Positions 23,729-29,311 of a DNA stretch of 64,000 bases are shown here, one piece after another (positions within the stretch are counted from its first letter, which is position 1; every line of letters begins with the position of its first letter). Source of the stretch: Candidatus Poribacteria bacterium (GTDB taxonomy: Bacteria > Poribacteria > WGA-4E > WGA-3G); the NCBI GenBank assembly GCA_965197475.1, contig CBDANF010000003.1:3712001-3776000 (forward strand), in the 5' to 3' direction. Under the pieces are notes generated by a model that was not told the DNA's origin, ran no database searches, and was given only the letters and a program-made list of their open reading frames with translations. The position numbers and the translations under genes were made by a program.

Positions 23729-24523
23729 CTAAGATTCATCATCAAAACTAAAAGATTTACCTGATTCAACAACAAGTTCCCTAAAATAATTTACTGCTAA
23801 TCGCAGCTGCTTTTCGGAATCTGCTCTATCAGAGTGAGTTGAAACGAGGTCAACGGGCATTTTATTGCCTTCCACATTACGTAGGGCAACATAAGCCTTT
23901 AGATATACATCTGGATGACGTTCCATCACTTTCTGCATCAGTGGTGAAACTTCCGCTTCAAACATATTTACATAAATCCGTGCGGTACTAATCTCAGCAC
24001 GGTAACGTTCGCCTATCAAGGGTTGAATATGAGTTTCGAAAATCGCTTTCATCTCGCGTGGTGGACCTGGCATCATCATAATAGTAGATTGCTTATGAGT
24101 AACACTTATGCAGGGTGCCCATCCCGCAGGATTCTGAAGTACTTGTGCTGTTTCTGGCACAGTTGCCATCTTGGTTAGTGCTTCATTAAGCGGATCGTTT
24201 TCAGACATCTCACGGCGTTTTCGGTATTCTGCCATGGTCTCTTCATTCACAACAGGTTTTGTGCCAATGAGTGATGCGACAACAGTCACGGTCATATCAT
24301 CCGGTGTTGGTCCGAGTCCTCCCGTTGTAAGAATAAGTGCTGTTTCACGTTGAATTGCACCATCCAACGCATCAGTCATCTCATCAAAATTATCGCGTAG
24401 CATAGTTACTCGGTGTAATTCCCCACCGTATTGTAGTATCTGCTGTGCAATCCAGTGGGCGTTGGTATCCTGAATTTGTCCGAGGACTAACTCAGTTCCA
24501 ATTGAAAACAGTTCTATCGCCAC
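23729..24523 (-). CDS. CinA-like molybdopterin-binding domain protein (no PncC domain)
   Basis: IGTELVLGQIQDTNAHW, TTGGLGPTPDD and MPGPPREM motifs. Confidence 0.88.
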   Translation of the reverse strand: MAIELFSIGTELVLGQIQDTNAHWIAQQILQYGGELHRVTMLRDNFDEMTDALDGAIQRETALILTTGGLGPTPDDMTVTVVASLIGTKPVVNEETMAEYRKRREMSENDPLNEALTKMATVPETAQVLQNPAGWAPCISVTHKQSTIMMMPGPPREMKAIFETHIQPLIGERYRAEISTARIYVNMFEAEVSPLMQKVMERHPDVYLKAYVALRNVEGNKMPVDLVSTHSDRADSEKQLRLAVNYFRELVVESGKSFSFDDES

Positions 24524-24594
24524 CTAATTCTCCCTTTTACAAAACCTGTTTAAGGAACTCATACGCTCCGACACCGTAAAAACTATATCCCGTT

Positions 24595-24783
24595 TCAAAC
24601 AAGATCGAGCATCTCCGCATATTGTAACACATTTGATATATAGTTGTCTATACAATGACGTAAAACACGCTGCCATTCTTCCGCTTCTGCTACAGTCGTT
24701 GCCCGGAATTCCAATTCGCGTGGTATTTCAGCATATAATTGGTGCGAAAAATCTAAGGTGTCAAGGTATTGTTCACTGGACAT
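24595..24783 (-). pseudogene. Truncated N-terminus of a probable alpha/beta-hydrolase
   Basis: YAEIPRELEFRATTVAEAEEWQRVLR resembles the N-termini of acetylxylan esterase/dienelactone hydrolase-like proteins, then degenerates. Confidence 0.4.
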
Positions 24784-25011
24784 CTTTTTCACTTTTTAGT
24801 AACGCAATAAGTAGTTTTGGACATGATAAAATCTGTGAATTTTAATTTCTCATCTATAAGTGTTTATACAGATAATCTGATTGCAATTCATTTGTATAAT
24901 ACTGCTATTTATAGTTTGTATCAAATGACCCCATGAGTTATACTATTAGTATTCGTTAAACTAACGAGTAGATGTCCTCGGATCCCCGATAATCTATTCA
25001 TGGAGGTCAAT

Positions 25012-25812
25012 ATGAACCGCAAGAAGGATACCGCTTACGGTATCACTCGGCTCGAATCCAAGAATGCCAGAGCCGCGATTATTCAGAAGATTTCAGCAGA
25101 CTTTAATCTAATGCCTCTCGTTGCTGAAGCCTACTATAAACAGATTTCCACCTACTTTGAACAACACGCCGATGTGCACCTGACATCAGGGCAAATCTGC
25201 TACGAGGCAGTCGCCGCAGAGGAACCCGCAGGTAAACATATCGCTTTAGCGAAAAAAGTTTCCTGTCGGCTAACTCTCAATGACACAAACGCCGATCTTG
25301 AAGTCTTAGCGAATTATGGTCTCGCAGGACTCAGACGGCATCGGATCCTCCGATTGACCCAAGAAGCTTATGACCAAGATGCCTTACTGAGCTACGAGGA
25401 TTTAGCTGTATTATTAACCACCAGTCCTGCTACAGTCAAACGCGACATTCGACACTTGAAGCAGGATGGGTATTTCGTTATGACGCGCGGGACGAAACAC
25501 GACATGGGCCCCGGCACTTCTCATAAAACCCAGGTCCTGGAGTTATATTTCAAAGCCTATACCTTCACCGAAATCGAGAAAAAGACGAACCACAGCGAAC
25601 GAGCTGTCTACCGCTACTTGAAAGACTTTACACAAGTCGCTACGCTCCATCATCAAGGCTTTCCTAACGCACAGATACGCCTGATCACCCATCTATCTGA
25701 CCGGTTGATCCGCGAGTATCTCTCACTCTATGAGGAATACCAACACACAGATCGCATGACCCAACTCCTTCACCCAGAACCTGAGGACACAAAAAAGGGG
25801 GACCTCTCATGA
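25012..25812 (+). CDS. DUF1670-like multi-HTH protein A
   Basis: GGAGG RBS; EAYDQDALLSYEDLAVLL, TRGTKHDMGPGTSHK and NHSERAVYRY motifs. Confidence 0.8.
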   Translation: MNRKKDTAYGITRLESKNARAAIIQKISADFNLMPLVAEAYYKQISTYFEQHADVHLTSGQICYEAVAAEEPAGKHIALAKKVSCRLTLNDTNADLEVLANYGLAGLRRHRILRLTQEAYDQDALLSYEDLAVLLTTSPATVKRDIRHLKQDGYFVMTRGTKHDMGPGTSHKTQVLELYFKAYTFTEIEKKTNHSERAVYRYLKDFTQVATLHHQGFPNAQIRLITHLSDRLIREYLSLYEEYQHTDRMTQLLHPEPEDTKKGDLS

Positions 25813-26693
25813 GCAAACCTCTAACCCGCACGCAAATCAACGAGAAGAAATTCAGACGCATCAACGATAAGTCCCTACGACAGTTGCTCATTCACCGCTT
25901 TCTCAATGACTATGGTTATGACAAAGGCGAAGTCACTGCCACCGCCATTGTTGATGATATTCTTAAGACCGTTGAAGACTATTTCGTGATTACCCTTCCT
26001 TTGGAGAAACTCGCCACCGGCGATCAACTCCCGGATGAGCGTTTCTTGAGTTATGGACAACTCGTTTGGATGGCCGTCCCTATTGAAGAGCATCCAGAAA
26101 GAGGAAAGTCCATCGTCAAAACCCGCATGAAACCCGTCATCCTGACTTACCTCGCCGCAGAGGATATTGAATCCTTTCGCAACGGTTTCACCTCCCGGCA
26201 ATTGCGGATCAATCGCTTGGTCCGCTGGTGTCATCAAGCTTATGACCAAGGGGCATTATTGACACAACTCGACTTGGCAGTTTTGCTCAATGTCTGCGAT
26301 GCCGTTGTCTGTGATTATGTTAATGAATGGCAAAAAACCACTGGAGAACTCTTGCCCACCCGTGGCAATATCCATGACTTATCGGGGGCTATTACCCATA
26401 AGAAAGAGATCATAACCCTCTATCTTCAAGGACATCTCACCCCCAGGATTGCCGCAAAGACCAAACACTCTAAGGAGGCAGTTGACCGATACATTCGCGA
26501 TTATGAGAGCGTCAAAGTCGTTCGGAAAGCAACCGCAGATATTGATAAAATCTCACAGATTACACGACTTTCTAAACGCGTCATCTCTCAATATCTCGAC
26601 CTCATACCGCAGCACCAACTCCAAGCCATAGATGCAGACCTTGCCAATTCAGACTCAAACGATGAAGCCACTCACCAAGGAGAAGCCCAATGA
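25809..26693 (+). CDS. DUF1670-like multi-HTH protein B (paralog of A)
   Basis: ATGA overlap with A; QAYDQGALLTQLDLAVLL, TRGNIHDLSGAITHK and KHSKEAVDRY motifs. Confidence 0.8.
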   Translation: MSKPLTRTQINEKKFRRINDKSLRQLLIHRFLNDYGYDKGEVTATAIVDDILKTVEDYFVITLPLEKLATGDQLPDERFLSYGQLVWMAVPIEEHPERGKSIVKTRMKPVILTYLAAEDIESFRNGFTSRQLRINRLVRWCHQAYDQGALLTQLDLAVLLNVCDAVVCDYVNEWQKTTGELLPTRGNIHDLSGAITHKKEIITLYLQGHLTPRIAAKTKHSKEAVDRYIRDYESVKVVRKATADIDKISQITRLSKRVISQYLDLIPQHQLQAIDADLANSDSNDEATHQGEAQ

Positions 26694-26760
26694 GACCCTA
26701 ATCCTATGTTCCCGACGAACTTTACTTCGCAAAACCGGGGCAGGTGCCTTGAAAATATGG

Positions 26761-26789
26761 TTGACAACCGCTACTGGTTTTGCTATACT
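26761..26789 (+). promoter_or_regulatory. Near-consensus sigma70 promoter inside the right end of the element
   Basis: TTGACA-17 nt-TATACT with extended -10 TGn. Confidence 0.75.
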
Positions 26790-26795
26790 TTAGAC

Positions 26796-26921
26796 ACGTT
26801 TATCGCTAAACGCATCATTTCTCAAAGAGGATGCTCGCGATCCCAACGCAACCCACTCATCAACGATCGCTGGGAAGCCAATAAACATCAGCCTTCCAGC
26901 TATCCTATGGTCATTTGATAC
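26796..26921 (+). ncRNA. Putative structured non-coding RNA (~125 nt)
   Basis: Consecutive stems CGTTTA/TAAACG, GCATC..CTC/GAG.GATGC, GCGATC/GATCGC and GCTGGGAAGC/GCCTTCCAGC immediately after the promoter; no RBS or convincing ORF. Confidence 0.45.
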
Positions 26922-27064
26922 TATTTAAGAAACGACACGATATCTTCACTTATATTACCACAATAATGGAAGAATGGCGGCGTCTAATTTCGTTATAAAA
27001 GGTTTATATCTCTATAACAGATTGTAAAAATTCAACATATAGTAATCTCAATATAGACTCTTAT

Positions 27065-28270
27065 CTACAAAGTAATGCCCAACTCCTTTGCAATTGTATA
27101 AACATCTTTATCACCACGTCCAGATAGGCATACTACGATGGTTTTGCCGTCACCAAGTTTCGGCGCAAGTTCACGTAGGTACGCAATGGCATGCGCGGAT
27201 TCTAATGCTGGAATGATTCCCTCAGTCTCCGACAACAACTGAAATCCTTCCACGGCCTCTGTATCGGTAATCGGCACATATTCCGCTCTACCAATTTCTC
27301 GATAATAACTGTGTTCCGGACCTACACCAGGGTAATCTAACCCCGCGGAAATCGAATGGGCAGGTGTTATCTGTCCATCATCTTCTTGCAATAGATAGCA
27401 CTTTGCACCGTGAAAAACACCAACACTTCCTGCAATGAGCGGTGCGGCGTGCCGTCCGCTACGGATACTCTCACCTGCTGCTTCAACACCGATAAGGCGA
27501 ACAGACTCGTCATGATAAAATGGATGGAACATACCGAGAGAATTACTGCCACCGCCAACACAGGCAACGACACAATCCGGTAAGATACCCTCCTGTTCTA
27601 AAATTTGTGCTTTCGCTTCTTCGCCGATAACAGCTTGGAAGTCTCTAACGATCATGGGGTAAGGATGCGCCCCGACAACTGAGCCGAGAAGCAAATATGT
27701 TGTGCGGACATTTGTAACCCAATCTCGGAAACAGGCATTGATGGCATCTTTGAGCGTACGTGAACCTGAATTGATAGGCACAACTTTTGTTCCCATCAAC
27801 CGCATGCGGAATACGTTGAGTGCTTGTCGTTCTATATCCTCTTCACCCATATAGACTTCGCATTCCATATCAAACTTAGCAGCGACGGTTGCTGTCGCTA
27901 CGCCGTGTTGCCCCGCACCGGTCTCGGCGATGATACGTTTTTTGCCCATCCACCGTGCAAGCAATATCTGTCCGATTGCACTGTTGATCTTGTGTGCGCC
28001 TGTATGGTTCAGGTCTTCTCTTTTAAGGTATATTTTTGCGCCACCGAGGGTTTCAGTTAACCGTTCTGCATAGTAGAGCGGATTTGGTCTCCCGACATAT
28101 TCACTGAGGTAATACCGAAATTCCTTTTGAAAATCGGAATTATCTTTGAGTGTTGTGTATGCCTCTTCCAATTCTAAAAGTGCGGGCATAAGAGTTTCGG
28201 GGACATATCTTCCACCGAACTGTCCGAAGTGTCCTGTTGCATCAGGAAGTTGTTGCATGTAGTTCTCCAT
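27065..28270 (-). CDS. trpB: Tryptophan synthase beta chain
   Basis: [23 protein letters not shown] and [15 protein letters not shown] motifs. Confidence 0.97.
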
Positions 28271-28294
28271 TTTGTGTTGTGTTTAGTTGTGCTA

Positions 28295-29311
28295 TTATGT
28301 TTTCTTTTTCATGAGTGATTTCGTACGAAGGTTTGGACGTTCCAAAACCGATGGGTTTACAACCGATTCCGGCAGTTGACCAGTTAATACTTGTGCCACA
28401 CACGTAGCGGCGGTGACCTCTAATTCAAGGATTGATTCTTCAGAGATAAAAGCAGCGTGCGGTGTGATGACCACATTGTCAAGACTGAACAGAGCTTCCT
28501 CCGATTGTGGCGGTTCGGTTTCCAATACATCCAAACCTGCACCTGCAATCTCACCATTTCGCAGTGCGTCAGTAAGTGCTGCTGTGTTTACAATCCCGCC
28601 TCGCGCAGTGTTGATTAGGAACGTTGTCGGTTTCATTATACGAAATTCGTCAAAACTGAACATGTGTTCTGTCTCAGGTGTCAAAGGTGCGTGAATCGTG
28701 ATAAAATCTGATGTTTTGAGAAGTTCTTGAAAAGAGACTTTTTCCGCACCGTGATATCGAATTAATTCAGATGAGGCACGCGGAGAATAGATTTTCACAG
28801 CAAGTCCAAATGCTTTCGCTTTTGGGATAATCGCCTTTCCGATGTGTCCGAATCCTACAATACCTAAAGTTTTTCCACGTAATCTGAACATCTGAGGTCC
28901 GATATTCTGATCCCATATACCAGATTTAACTGCCGCATTGAAACGTGGTATTTTTCTGACACAAGCGAGCAGAAGTGCCATCGCGTGGTCAGAGACTTCA
29001 TCAACACAATATGTTGGAACATTAGTAACGATGATCCCGTTCTCAGTGGCACTTTTCACATCAATGTTGTCTAACCCGATACCGCAACGAGCGATAATTT
29101 GACACTTTTTGGCTGCGTCAATGACACACTTGCGAATCGGTTTCCAACATGTGAGAATACCGTCCACCGTCGGCGCGAGGGTGAGGAGTTCTGCTTCCTC
29201 ACCTGTTTCCGCCACAGTAAGTTCTGCCCCAACTTTTGCAAGTACCTGTCGTTCGGGTTCAATAGATGACCAAGCGTAATCGGTTATGAGGACTTTCCAT
29301 TTGTTTAACAT
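28295..29311 (-). CDS. D-isomer-specific 2-hydroxyacid dehydrogenase (SerA/CtBP-like)
   Basis: GIGLDNID, GIVGFGHIG, INTARGG and TPHAAF motifs; likely start MLNKW at 29311. Confidence 0.88.
   Translation of the reverse strand: MLNKWKVLITDYAWSSIEPERQVLAKVGAELTVAETGEEAELLTLAPTVDGILTCWKPIRKCVIDAAKKCQIIARCGIGLDNIDVKSATENGIIVTNVPTYCVDEVSDHAMALLLACVRKIPRFNAAVKSGIWDQNIGPQMFRLRGKTLGIVGFGHIGKAIIPKAKAFGLAVKIYSPRASSELIRYHGAEKVSFQELLKTSDFITIHAPLTPETEHMFSFDEFRIMKPTTFLINTARGGIVNTAALTDALRNGEIAGAGLDVLETEPPQSEEALFSLDNVVITPHAAFISEESILELEVTAATCVAQVLTGQLPESVVNPSVLERPNLRTKSLMKKKT

Follow-up and report, generated by a model that had tools for sequence, protein, structure and literature searches.

A conserved outward promoter and putative hairpin leader at the right end of DUF1670 insertion elements in Candidatus Poribacteria

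Introduction

What does a strong promoter do at the edge of a mobile element when it points outward and has no gene to transcribe? This question is raised by a 64,000-nucleotide (nt) stretch of DNA from a Candidatus Poribacteria bacterium (GenBank assembly GCA_965197475.1, contig CBDANF010000003.1, positions 3,712,001 to 3,776,000; here, the window), in which an insertion element with two DUF1670 genes ends in a promoter, a region of potential RNA hairpins (together, the module), and an inverted repeat. A first-pass annotation had suggested that the hairpin region yields a guide or scaffold RNA for the DUF1670 protein pair, with open loops as specificity determinants, and had named a regulatory or antitoxin RNA or an outward promoter as fallbacks. 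Of these fallbacks, a regulatory RNA or an outward promoter survives: we favor, with about even confidence, an outward promoter particular to this lineage, with a 5'-hairpin leader, from which transcription would cross the right end and play a regulatory part for the element.

Results

An outward promoter at the right end of the element is conserved among Poribacteria relatives

The first-pass annotation had singled out TTGACA-17-TGnTATACT as the best sigma-70 match that it noticed, with no gene downstream and a convergent trpB. Both observations were confirmed. Set back ~165 nt from the element's right tip, the promoter points outward and scores 11 of 12 plus the TG, placing it at the top of 12 promoter-like sites in 24000-29000 (shuffle mean, 9.1). 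No gene follows on that strand; the neighboring PALP-family (trpB-like) gene (27065-28270, minus strand) is convergent to the promoter. The 3' region of the element is laid out as follows.

26694-26760, plus strand: spacer from the ORF2 stop to the promoter (67 nt; identity 0.724; neutral-like evolution)
26761-26789, plus strand: sigma-70-type promoter, with -35 TTGACA at 26761-26766 and a spacer of 17 nt
26781-26782 and 26784-26789, plus strand: TG and -10 TATACT of the promoter, from consensus match and conservation
26797-26848, plus strand: 5' domain, a long hairpin in consensus folds
26798-26800 pairing with 26845-26847, plus strand: P1 of the consensus fold
26803-26807 pairing with 26836-26840, plus strand: P2 of the consensus fold
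26812-26816 pairing with 26830-26834, plus strand: P3 of the consensus fold
26856-26860, plus strand: conserved CTCAT, followed by a variable 5-nt segment at 26860-26864 (TCAAC in the window copy)
26865-26904, no strand assigned: P4 palindrome, GATCGCTGGGAAG / CTTCCAGCTATC, around the loop at 26878-26891 (CCAATAAACATCAG)
26909-26921, no strand assigned: right inverted repeat GGTCATTTGATAC (13 nt)

We examined relatives of the element for conservation of these features. PF07900, the family to which both element proteins belong, is present in 40 of 176 genomes of the Poribacteria phylum, and 80 further loci were taken from relatives; the sample comprised 89 oriented elements, which gave 50 distinct 240-nt right ends. 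Across these 50 Candidatus Poribacteria right ends, the TG (1.93 bits) and the -10 hexamer (1.95 bits) are nearly invariant, the base between them carries 0.74 bits, the -35 reads TTGACA, TTGGCA, or TTGATA, and the spacer is variable in sequence with its length held at 17 to 18 nt. Promoter conservation in homologs, which had been proposed earlier as a test, was therefore observed within Poribacteria. This arrangement (hexamers 17 ± 1 nt apart, a TG, and free spacer sequence) is that of an extended -10 sigma-70 promoter as judged from the aligned ends, and its conservation exceeds chance. The position of the promoter predicts a transcript start near 26794-26797.

Sequence constraint was quantified as mean pairwise identity among 33 representatives of group A, one of four groups of right ends described below. 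Third codon positions have identities of 0.713 to 0.740. Because identity steps up at the -35 from the neutral-like level of the spacer, constraint begins there: the promoter reaches 0.837, the 5' domain 0.817, P4 with its loop 0.867, and the inverted repeat 0.996 (left 40 nt of the element, 0.956). This profile indicates purifying selection on the promoter and the transcribed region. A small protein gene over the RNA region was rejected, since a 70-amino-acid (aa) frame at 26706-26918 is broken by early stops or shifts in 35 of the 50 right ends; the frame has no Pfam match. A search of 24000-28000 against Rfam returned 0 matches at E ≤ 1.

Folding of the region downstream of the promoter

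Folding better than shuffled controls had also been set as a test. The 126 nt at 26796-26921 have a minimum free energy of -27.8 kcal/mol (z = -2.47), and only 3 of 200 shuffles fold as well. The right ends were sorted into four RNA groups (A, n = 33; B, n = 8; C, n = 4; D, n = 5), and the consensus folds of all four comprise a long 5' hairpin (P1, P2, and P3) and a 3' hairpin (P4); in group D the 5' part is 33 nt shorter, a short hairpin standing in place of the long one. The 5' domain has a z of -2.1 in the window copy and of -2.6 to -4.3 in most close relatives, and the 5' hairpin at the predicted transcript start ranges from -2.1 to -5.0 in groups A and D. P4 is stable as well (z = -3.7 in the window copy; -3 to -5 in most representatives).

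These folds revise the structure that had first been drawn. Of its four back-to-back stems, 26812-26834 (as P3) and 26869-26900 (as P4) stood, and 26797-26812 and 26837-26870 gave way to the consensus pairs P1 and P2. The end of the RNA region at the 13-nt inverted repeat was confirmed. An alternative pairing of GTTTAT in the first stem with ATAAAC in the last loop is not kept: the 5' word becomes GTTGAT or GTGGAT, the loop being unchanged.

Base pairing was then compared across relatives. When group A was aligned by MAFFT alone, 91.4% of cells paired. On a covariance-model alignment of all 50 sequences, 37 cells in 10 pairs changed on both sides (cells, 0 of 500 shuffles; pairs, 7 of 500; slid controls, 4 to 6 pairs). 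On this model-fitted alignment the compensatory changes are almost confined to P1 and P2 and fall between groups; in P4, 1 of 11 pairs has a compensatory change, and many cells are unpaired. RNAalifold gave no useful consensus on the 50 MAFFT-aligned sequences. The idea that the hairpins are minus-strand terminators of the host gene was rejected, as no U-tract was seen after them by eye.

The surrounding element and its target sites

Placement of the module at the right end of a mobile element with a DUF1670 gene pair, as in the first-pass annotation, was borne out by copies, inverted repeats, and TT flanks.

24911-26924, plus strand: DUF1670 insertion element (ATAG...CTAT), with a TT on either side (24909-24910 and 26925-26926)
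24918-24930, no strand assigned: left inverted repeat GTATCAAATGACC (13 nt)
25000-25812, plus strand: open reading frame 1 (ORF1), DUF1670 protein, 270 aa (PF07900, E = 4e-62)
25809-26693, plus strand: ORF2, DUF1670 protein, 294 aa (PF07900, E = 1.2e-61)

The two genes overlap, and their products are 35% identical. In the genome of the source bacterium, which is sponge associated, there are 18 full-length copies, 1 copy with an internal deletion, and 1 derivative of 454 nt (92 to 100% identity), and the RNA model matches 20 places in it. The inverted repeat is the same in all 89 oriented elements. Domain scans of ORF1 and ORF2 returned PF07900 and helix-turn-helix families only, with no NCBIfam match above cut-off, and no DEDD (RuvC-like) transposase, TnpB, or HUH transposase was among the domain matches of the element's ORFs. 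An AlphaFold2 model of ORF2 (predicted local distance difference test score of 84.7) consists chiefly of helices, helix-turn-helix units among them, plus two short strands; a fold search with this model found no PDB neighbor at E ≤ 0.001, the matches being generic helix-turn-helix folds at E ≥ 0.14. The DUF1670 family comprises 1252 cluster representatives at E ≤ 0.001, with 1540 close homologues. Fused DUF1670 proteins of ~500 to 950 aa with two or three such stretches also occur (P0133, P0134, P0136, P0149, and ~20 others). Full-text literature searches found no paper on DUF1670 or PF07900, and none of the papers listed for insertion-sequence transposases in Poribacteria was relevant, judged by title or start of abstract.

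Insertion of the element is site specific. In 17 of the 19 copies in the source genome, the right flank is the reverse complement of a gene end reading ...ASGVYFY..TAGDFTATRKMLIL; one such target gene encodes a type A sorting domain of the type IX secretion system, or T9SS (TIGR04183; score of 42 bits against a cut-off of 23). The window copy is one of the 2 of 19 that lie away from T9SS-domain gene ends. The element goes into the final codon of genes whose 3' end encodes a T9SS sorting domain. Its terminal bases, CTATTT, provide AAA-TAG and thereby restore Lys plus stop. Paralogous sites without an insertion finish in AAR plus TAA or TAG, and where a site is occupied, the left flank closes with the stop and third Lys base in reverse complement; from this, TT is either duplicated or the crossover core. 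An IS608-like reading of the left-flank word TTAC was rejected, the word being the reverse complement of the stop and third Lys base. By our own sequence pattern, 17 of 37 T9SS-type gene ends in the source genome are occupied. At L185, L186, and L207 (an Eisenbacteria-labelled locus and two related ones), a flanking CG replaces TT and the host gene ends in Arg plus stop in place of Lys plus stop; the element end at L207 reads CTAC.

A second class of target is a palindrome like those of repetitive extragenic palindromic (REP) sequences, AACCGAGTTTT-TTCYTC-AAAACTCGGTT, into which one sublineage of the element inserts after the TT in the loop. REP-targeting elements occur in four genomes, in which the palindrome is found 409 (G059), 70 (G035), 42 (G060), and 35 (G026) times; it occurs once in the source genome. 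The REP-class sites are at loci L021, L032, L040, L044, L033, L051-L057, and L077-L080.

Target class and ORF2

The two target classes make it possible to ask which part of the element differs with its destination. One element, L082, lies at a T9SS-type site and carries a group-B RNA; it is an apparent recombinant, with a T9SS-type ORF2 block in a REP-lineage backbone. We scored as discriminating those nucleotides at which L082 matches every T9SS-class element and no REP-class one. Six nucleotides discriminate perfectly, all in ORF2 and none in the RNA, contrary to the suggestion that open loops determine specificity. The affected residues form a block within ~127-199 that includes the first helix-turn-helix, reading NVCDAV in T9SS-class and NVRDPV in REP-class elements. 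Taken whole, the block (...ESFRN/TSRQ/RIN/NVCDAV/SGA versus EHYYS/SSRE/RIH/NVRDPV/SAA) sorts the two classes with no exceptions. Among 114 distinct insertions, the R/P form is found at 11 REP, 2 degenerate, and 0 T9SS sites, and other forms at REP sites in 0 of 101 cases, a correlation in which lineages are non-independent and which rests mainly on the recombinant-looking L082. The RNAs of L082 and of L033, at a REP site, have 6 differences, none of them common to other T9SS-type RNAs. These comparisons indicate that target choice follows ORF2 and not the RNA, and most likely it is the DNA-binding protein of the element that sets the landing site.

Complementarity between RNA and target was assessed separately. 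The longest words shared by the two are 4 to 8 nt in 15 pairings, lengths reached by 7 to 100% of 300 dinucleotide shuffles. The variable 5-nt segment equals flank positions 5 to 9 in 17.8% of 73 insertions, versus 8.7% under permutation of flanks across genomes (P = 0.0012). Among copies in the source genome, 6 of the 10 with a TCAAC-type segment lie at TCAAC sites, whereas none of the 5 of TTAAT type does. The association is lost under permutation within genomes (P = 0.20 for exact matches and P = 0.33 for the first variable base, with 4 genomes informative). Mutual information between RNA and flank columns reaches 0.247 at most, below the permutation 95% level of 0.323. We keep the segment-flank match as a weak hint.

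Relatives in other phyla and short derivatives

ORF2 relatives 56 to 63% identical occur in Ignavibacteria, Bacteroidetes, Cloacimonadota, KSB1, Calditrichota, and others, with Marinimicrobia, Fidelibacterota, and Eisenbacteria as further phyla. Their elements retain the repeat GGTCAT(T/A)TGATACTAT and the same kind of target (TIGR04183 above cut-off in flank genes of 7 of 7 tested), and have 5' leaders of ~60 nt. The 3' noncoding regions measure 50 to 228 nt in 26 parsed loci, a range that leaves out L191-L195 and L202. The promoter pattern was found inside the element at 0 of 31 other-phyla loci scanned, and no counterpart of the hairpins was found in the 26 parsed. Among the elements examined, the module is thus restricted to those of Poribacteria, where it would be an accessory part. 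In the Ignavibacteria/Bacteroidetes type, a terminator-like hairpin (AGGGAAACGA...TCGTTTCCCT) and then a T-rich run follow ORF2 (L188, L189, L196-L198, L201, L203, L204, and L208), and a subterminal word, ATGCCT(A/T)A(A/G)AAAACC, is common to several other phyla.

Within the Poribacteria, the RNA model matches 84 of 151 genomes, far above the number that carry the genes. Inspection of 19 of the extra hits revealed short two-ended elements of ~210, 455, or 540 bp or right-end remnants, and promoter coordinates were included in 2 of the 19. Of the right end, the short two-ended elements retain just element positions 1907-2018, 1914-2018, or 1942-2018, a stretch that holds CTCAT, P4, and the inverted repeat but lacks both promoter and 5' hairpin. 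These promoterless elements lie in T9SS-type sites flanked by TT. By this comparison, the last 77 to 112 nt are the part kept by mobilized derivatives. Since promoterless derivatives keep the terminal ~80 nt, and P4 has almost no compensatory change, we take this part to be DNA that acts in cis, probably a palindrome bound by the helix-turn-helix proteins; P4 would fold in the transcript as well. More broadly, nonautonomous derivatives of ~210 to 540 bp consist of 90 to 127 nt of left end and 77 to 161 nt of right end (L233, L221-L223, L228, L230, and, in the source genome, G000:C3:94110-94558); some carry unrelated repeated inserts, and they lie at proper target sites.

The reading of the RNA as a target guide, and with it the first-pass proposal of a guide or scaffold RNA with open loops as specificity determinants, is not supported, on the combined grounds of the ORF2-linked target class, the chance-level words, the module-free relatives, and the promoterless derivatives.

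The module also resembles a coding part of the element.

26561-26655, plus strand: 3' coding part of ORF2 that aligns with 26793-26894 in the same orientation

The local alignment scores 51 (shuffles, 28.5 ± 5.1; reached by 1 of 500), and a direct repeat of 18 of 20 nt was also seen. The module probably arose by duplication, perhaps in tandem, of the ORF2 3' end in the Poribacteria lineage, as far as this alignment can tell.

RNA-library contigs and joined ends

Metatranscriptome contigs from 4 runs in 3 studies cover the element and bridge both of its junctions, and in 3 of the 4 runs (X2, X5, and X6) they bridge the right junction into T9SS-type flanks. At the other end, the window copy (24909-24999) and its relatives have a weaker promoter-like sequence, TTGTAT-17-TA(T/C/A)ACT, whose -35 lies within the left inverted repeat, and a conserved ribosome-binding stretch, CATGGAGGTCA. 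In one genome (G081), the left flank of element L106 contains a 16-nt right-end-like word (GGTTATTTGATACTAT) and then TT, abutting the left end; no more element sequence lies upstream of the word, which may be a relic of joined ends. We also considered an antisense RNA of the RNA-OUT type directed at the ORF1 leader. The duplex between RNA core and leader ranges from z = +0.82 to -3.38, reaching -2 or below in 2 of 10 representatives, with pairing places not common to them, and this candidate was rejected for lack of consistent complementarity.

Discussion

The reading that we favor divides the right end into two parts. The sigma-70 promoter would start an outward transcript whose first ~55 nt form a hairpin, and the transcript would then cross the last ~80 nt of the element and exit. 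Promoter and 5' hairpin would be the part that acts through RNA, the hairpin stabilizing the transcript, and CTCAT, P4, and the inverted repeat would owe their conservation to a role in cis, as DNA recognized by the helix-turn-helix proteins of the element. Outward transcription would serve the element's own regulation, most likely by reading across a right-end/left-end junction, in a circle or tandem, into ORF1-ORF2, whose start lies 91 nt in from the left end. Outward transcription may also counter transcripts of the host that come into the right end from the convergent target gene. The mechanism that we prefer, though unproven, is the one in which joined ends let the promoter read into ORF1-ORF2. 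A role for the element itself is favored because the REP-targeting sublineage keeps the module without a guaranteed convergent gene. The likely origin of the module from the ORF2 3' end fits its late addition to the element.

Several observations weigh against this reading. In groups B and C the 5' domain lacks significant stability (z of -1.8 to +0.9). Covariation, a check proposed in the first-pass annotation, is weak: the signal across groups rests on the model-fitted alignment and few independent lineages, and within group A it is nil, with 1 compensatory cell (reached by 352 of 500 shuffles). Plus-strand-only G-U cells (78) are barely above minus-strand-only A-C cells (59). The contigs from RNA libraries carry no start, end, strand, or level and may contain DNA. 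A junction of right end, 0 to 8 nt, and left end was absent from the 176 Poribacteria genomes and from metagenome contigs, all of them assemblies, which rarely retain such forms; a circular or tandem intermediate is pure conjecture. Finally, we know of no promoter rules for Poribacteria.

Other explanations account for some of the same data. The module could be a stand-alone small RNA (sRNA) that rides in the element, or the source of an antisense transcript acting on the convergent host gene, which we consider possible but unlikely. A precedent for the former, in the accessible text of PMC12288879, is ISPpu9, whose sRNA lies downstream of the transposase and is dispensable for transposition; free-standing copies of the present module with ends of their own were, however, not seen, the extra hits being remnants or promoterless short elements. 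For the latter, the fixed orientation at T9SS-type sites would place the transcript always antisense to the 3' end of the host gene, and contigs bridge the right junction into such flanks in most of the runs, but these contigs are strandless and possibly DNA, and the REP-targeting lineage again keeps the module where no convergent gene is guaranteed. At the other extreme, there may be no RNA function, the whole conserved block, promoter-like words included, being DNA sites for element proteins. P4 does look like a protein-bound palindrome, with both arms conserved and scarcely any compensatory change, the short derivatives show a cis requirement for the terminal part, and the G-U and A-C counts leave the strand undecided. 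Yet TG-n-TATACT with a free n, and a -35 held 17 to 18 nt away through a variable spacer, are a signature of promoter selection, the promoter part is dispensable in cis (as the short derivatives indicate) while conserved in autonomous copies, and from group to group both strands of P1 and P2 are altered. We regard a purely DNA-level function as very improbable.

Only slightly better regarded is an RNA that acts in trans as a DUF1670 cofactor, either as a scaffold or as a fine-tuning guide that reads wobble positions of the target's last codons, a decidedly unlikely explanation in which full-length copies would supply the RNA to short derivatives. The accessible text of PMC11187229 places the seekRNA of IS1111 likewise downstream of the transposase, and the present RNA has a strong promoter of its own and proteins without a recognized catalytic domain beside it. 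The segment-flank match and the uneven distribution of TCAAC- and TTAAT-type copies also point this way; against them stand the loss of the association under within-genome permutation, mutual information below its 95% null level, chance-level RNA-target words, a class switch that maps to ORF2, and other-phyla elements that lack the module. In the most specific form of this idea, which we treat as a long shot, the DUF1670 pair of Poribacteria recruited a duplication-born RNA as trans cofactor, and the 5-nt segment biases the choice among T9SS ends. If true, the cofactor RNA would load onto the right-end complex, and the element would represent an early stage of an RNA-assisted recombinase without a known catalytic fold.

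For the preferred outward promoter and leader, the module offers a clean natural case for the role of outward transcription in an insertion element, because the promoter is conserved, relatives in other phyla are without the module, and it is gone from the short derivatives. The DUF1670 element family is nonetheless the more novel result. A helix-turn-helix protein pair without a recognizable transposase fold appears to move a 2-kb element with codon-level precision at the ends of T9SS-substrate genes, in Poribacteria and in several other phyla examined, and the landing site has been re-aimed to a REP-like palindrome together with a handful of residue changes in ORF2. The element is therefore a testable system for possibly new recombination chemistry and protein-encoded retargeting.

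Outward promoters and end-associated RNAs are found in other mobile elements. The omega-RNA of IS200/IS605 TnpB elements overlaps the element right end. The DUF1670 RNA region likewise overlaps the right end and would be transcribed toward the flank, but here there are no TnpB or HUH proteins, the ends are terminal inverted repeats with a TT that is duplicated or a crossover core, and Rfam gives no match. In IS10, the strong outward promoter pOUT produces RNA-OUT, a short stable hairpin RNA. The module resembles it in its short hairpin RNA and strong promoter and differs in having no consistent complementarity to the ORF1 leader. IS911 reportedly forms a circle-junction promoter (Ton-Hoang et al. 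1997) that controls the transposase genes only when the ends are joined. Like this promoter and pOUT, the DUF1670 promoter is strong, lies near one end, and points out, and under the preferred mechanism it would likewise govern the element's genes only once the ends are joined. Unlike the IS911 promoter, it is not put together from two ends but lies whole within a single one, ~165 nt short of the tip, and no junction was found.

Likeness is closer to two systems, each compared here from the accessible text of its report. As with the seekRNA or bridge RNA of IS1111/IS110 (PMC11187229), a noncoding region lies beside the transposase gene, downstream as in IS1111, and a site-specific element, with REP-like palindromes as targets in one lineage, carries a stem-loop RNA with its own promoter. 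In contrast to these systems, of which the seekRNA is the closest RNA-guided case, the DUF1670 element has no DEDD transposase and no target words beyond chance, its RNA is unchanged when the target class changes, and family members elsewhere lack the RNA. Ssr9 of ISPpu9 in Pseudomonas putida (PMC12288879) is an sRNA encoded behind the transposase gene, and transposition proceeds without it; it shares with our module both this position and a host insertion sequence that targets repeated sites. The transposase families are different, and Ssr9 forms circles on its own and has separate copies, whereas no independent movement of the DUF1670 promoter and 5' hairpin was seen. Dispensability was shown there, and here would follow from the module-free relatives and derivatives. 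On this comparison, Ssr9 is the closest described case of a dispensable sRNA module behind a transposase gene.

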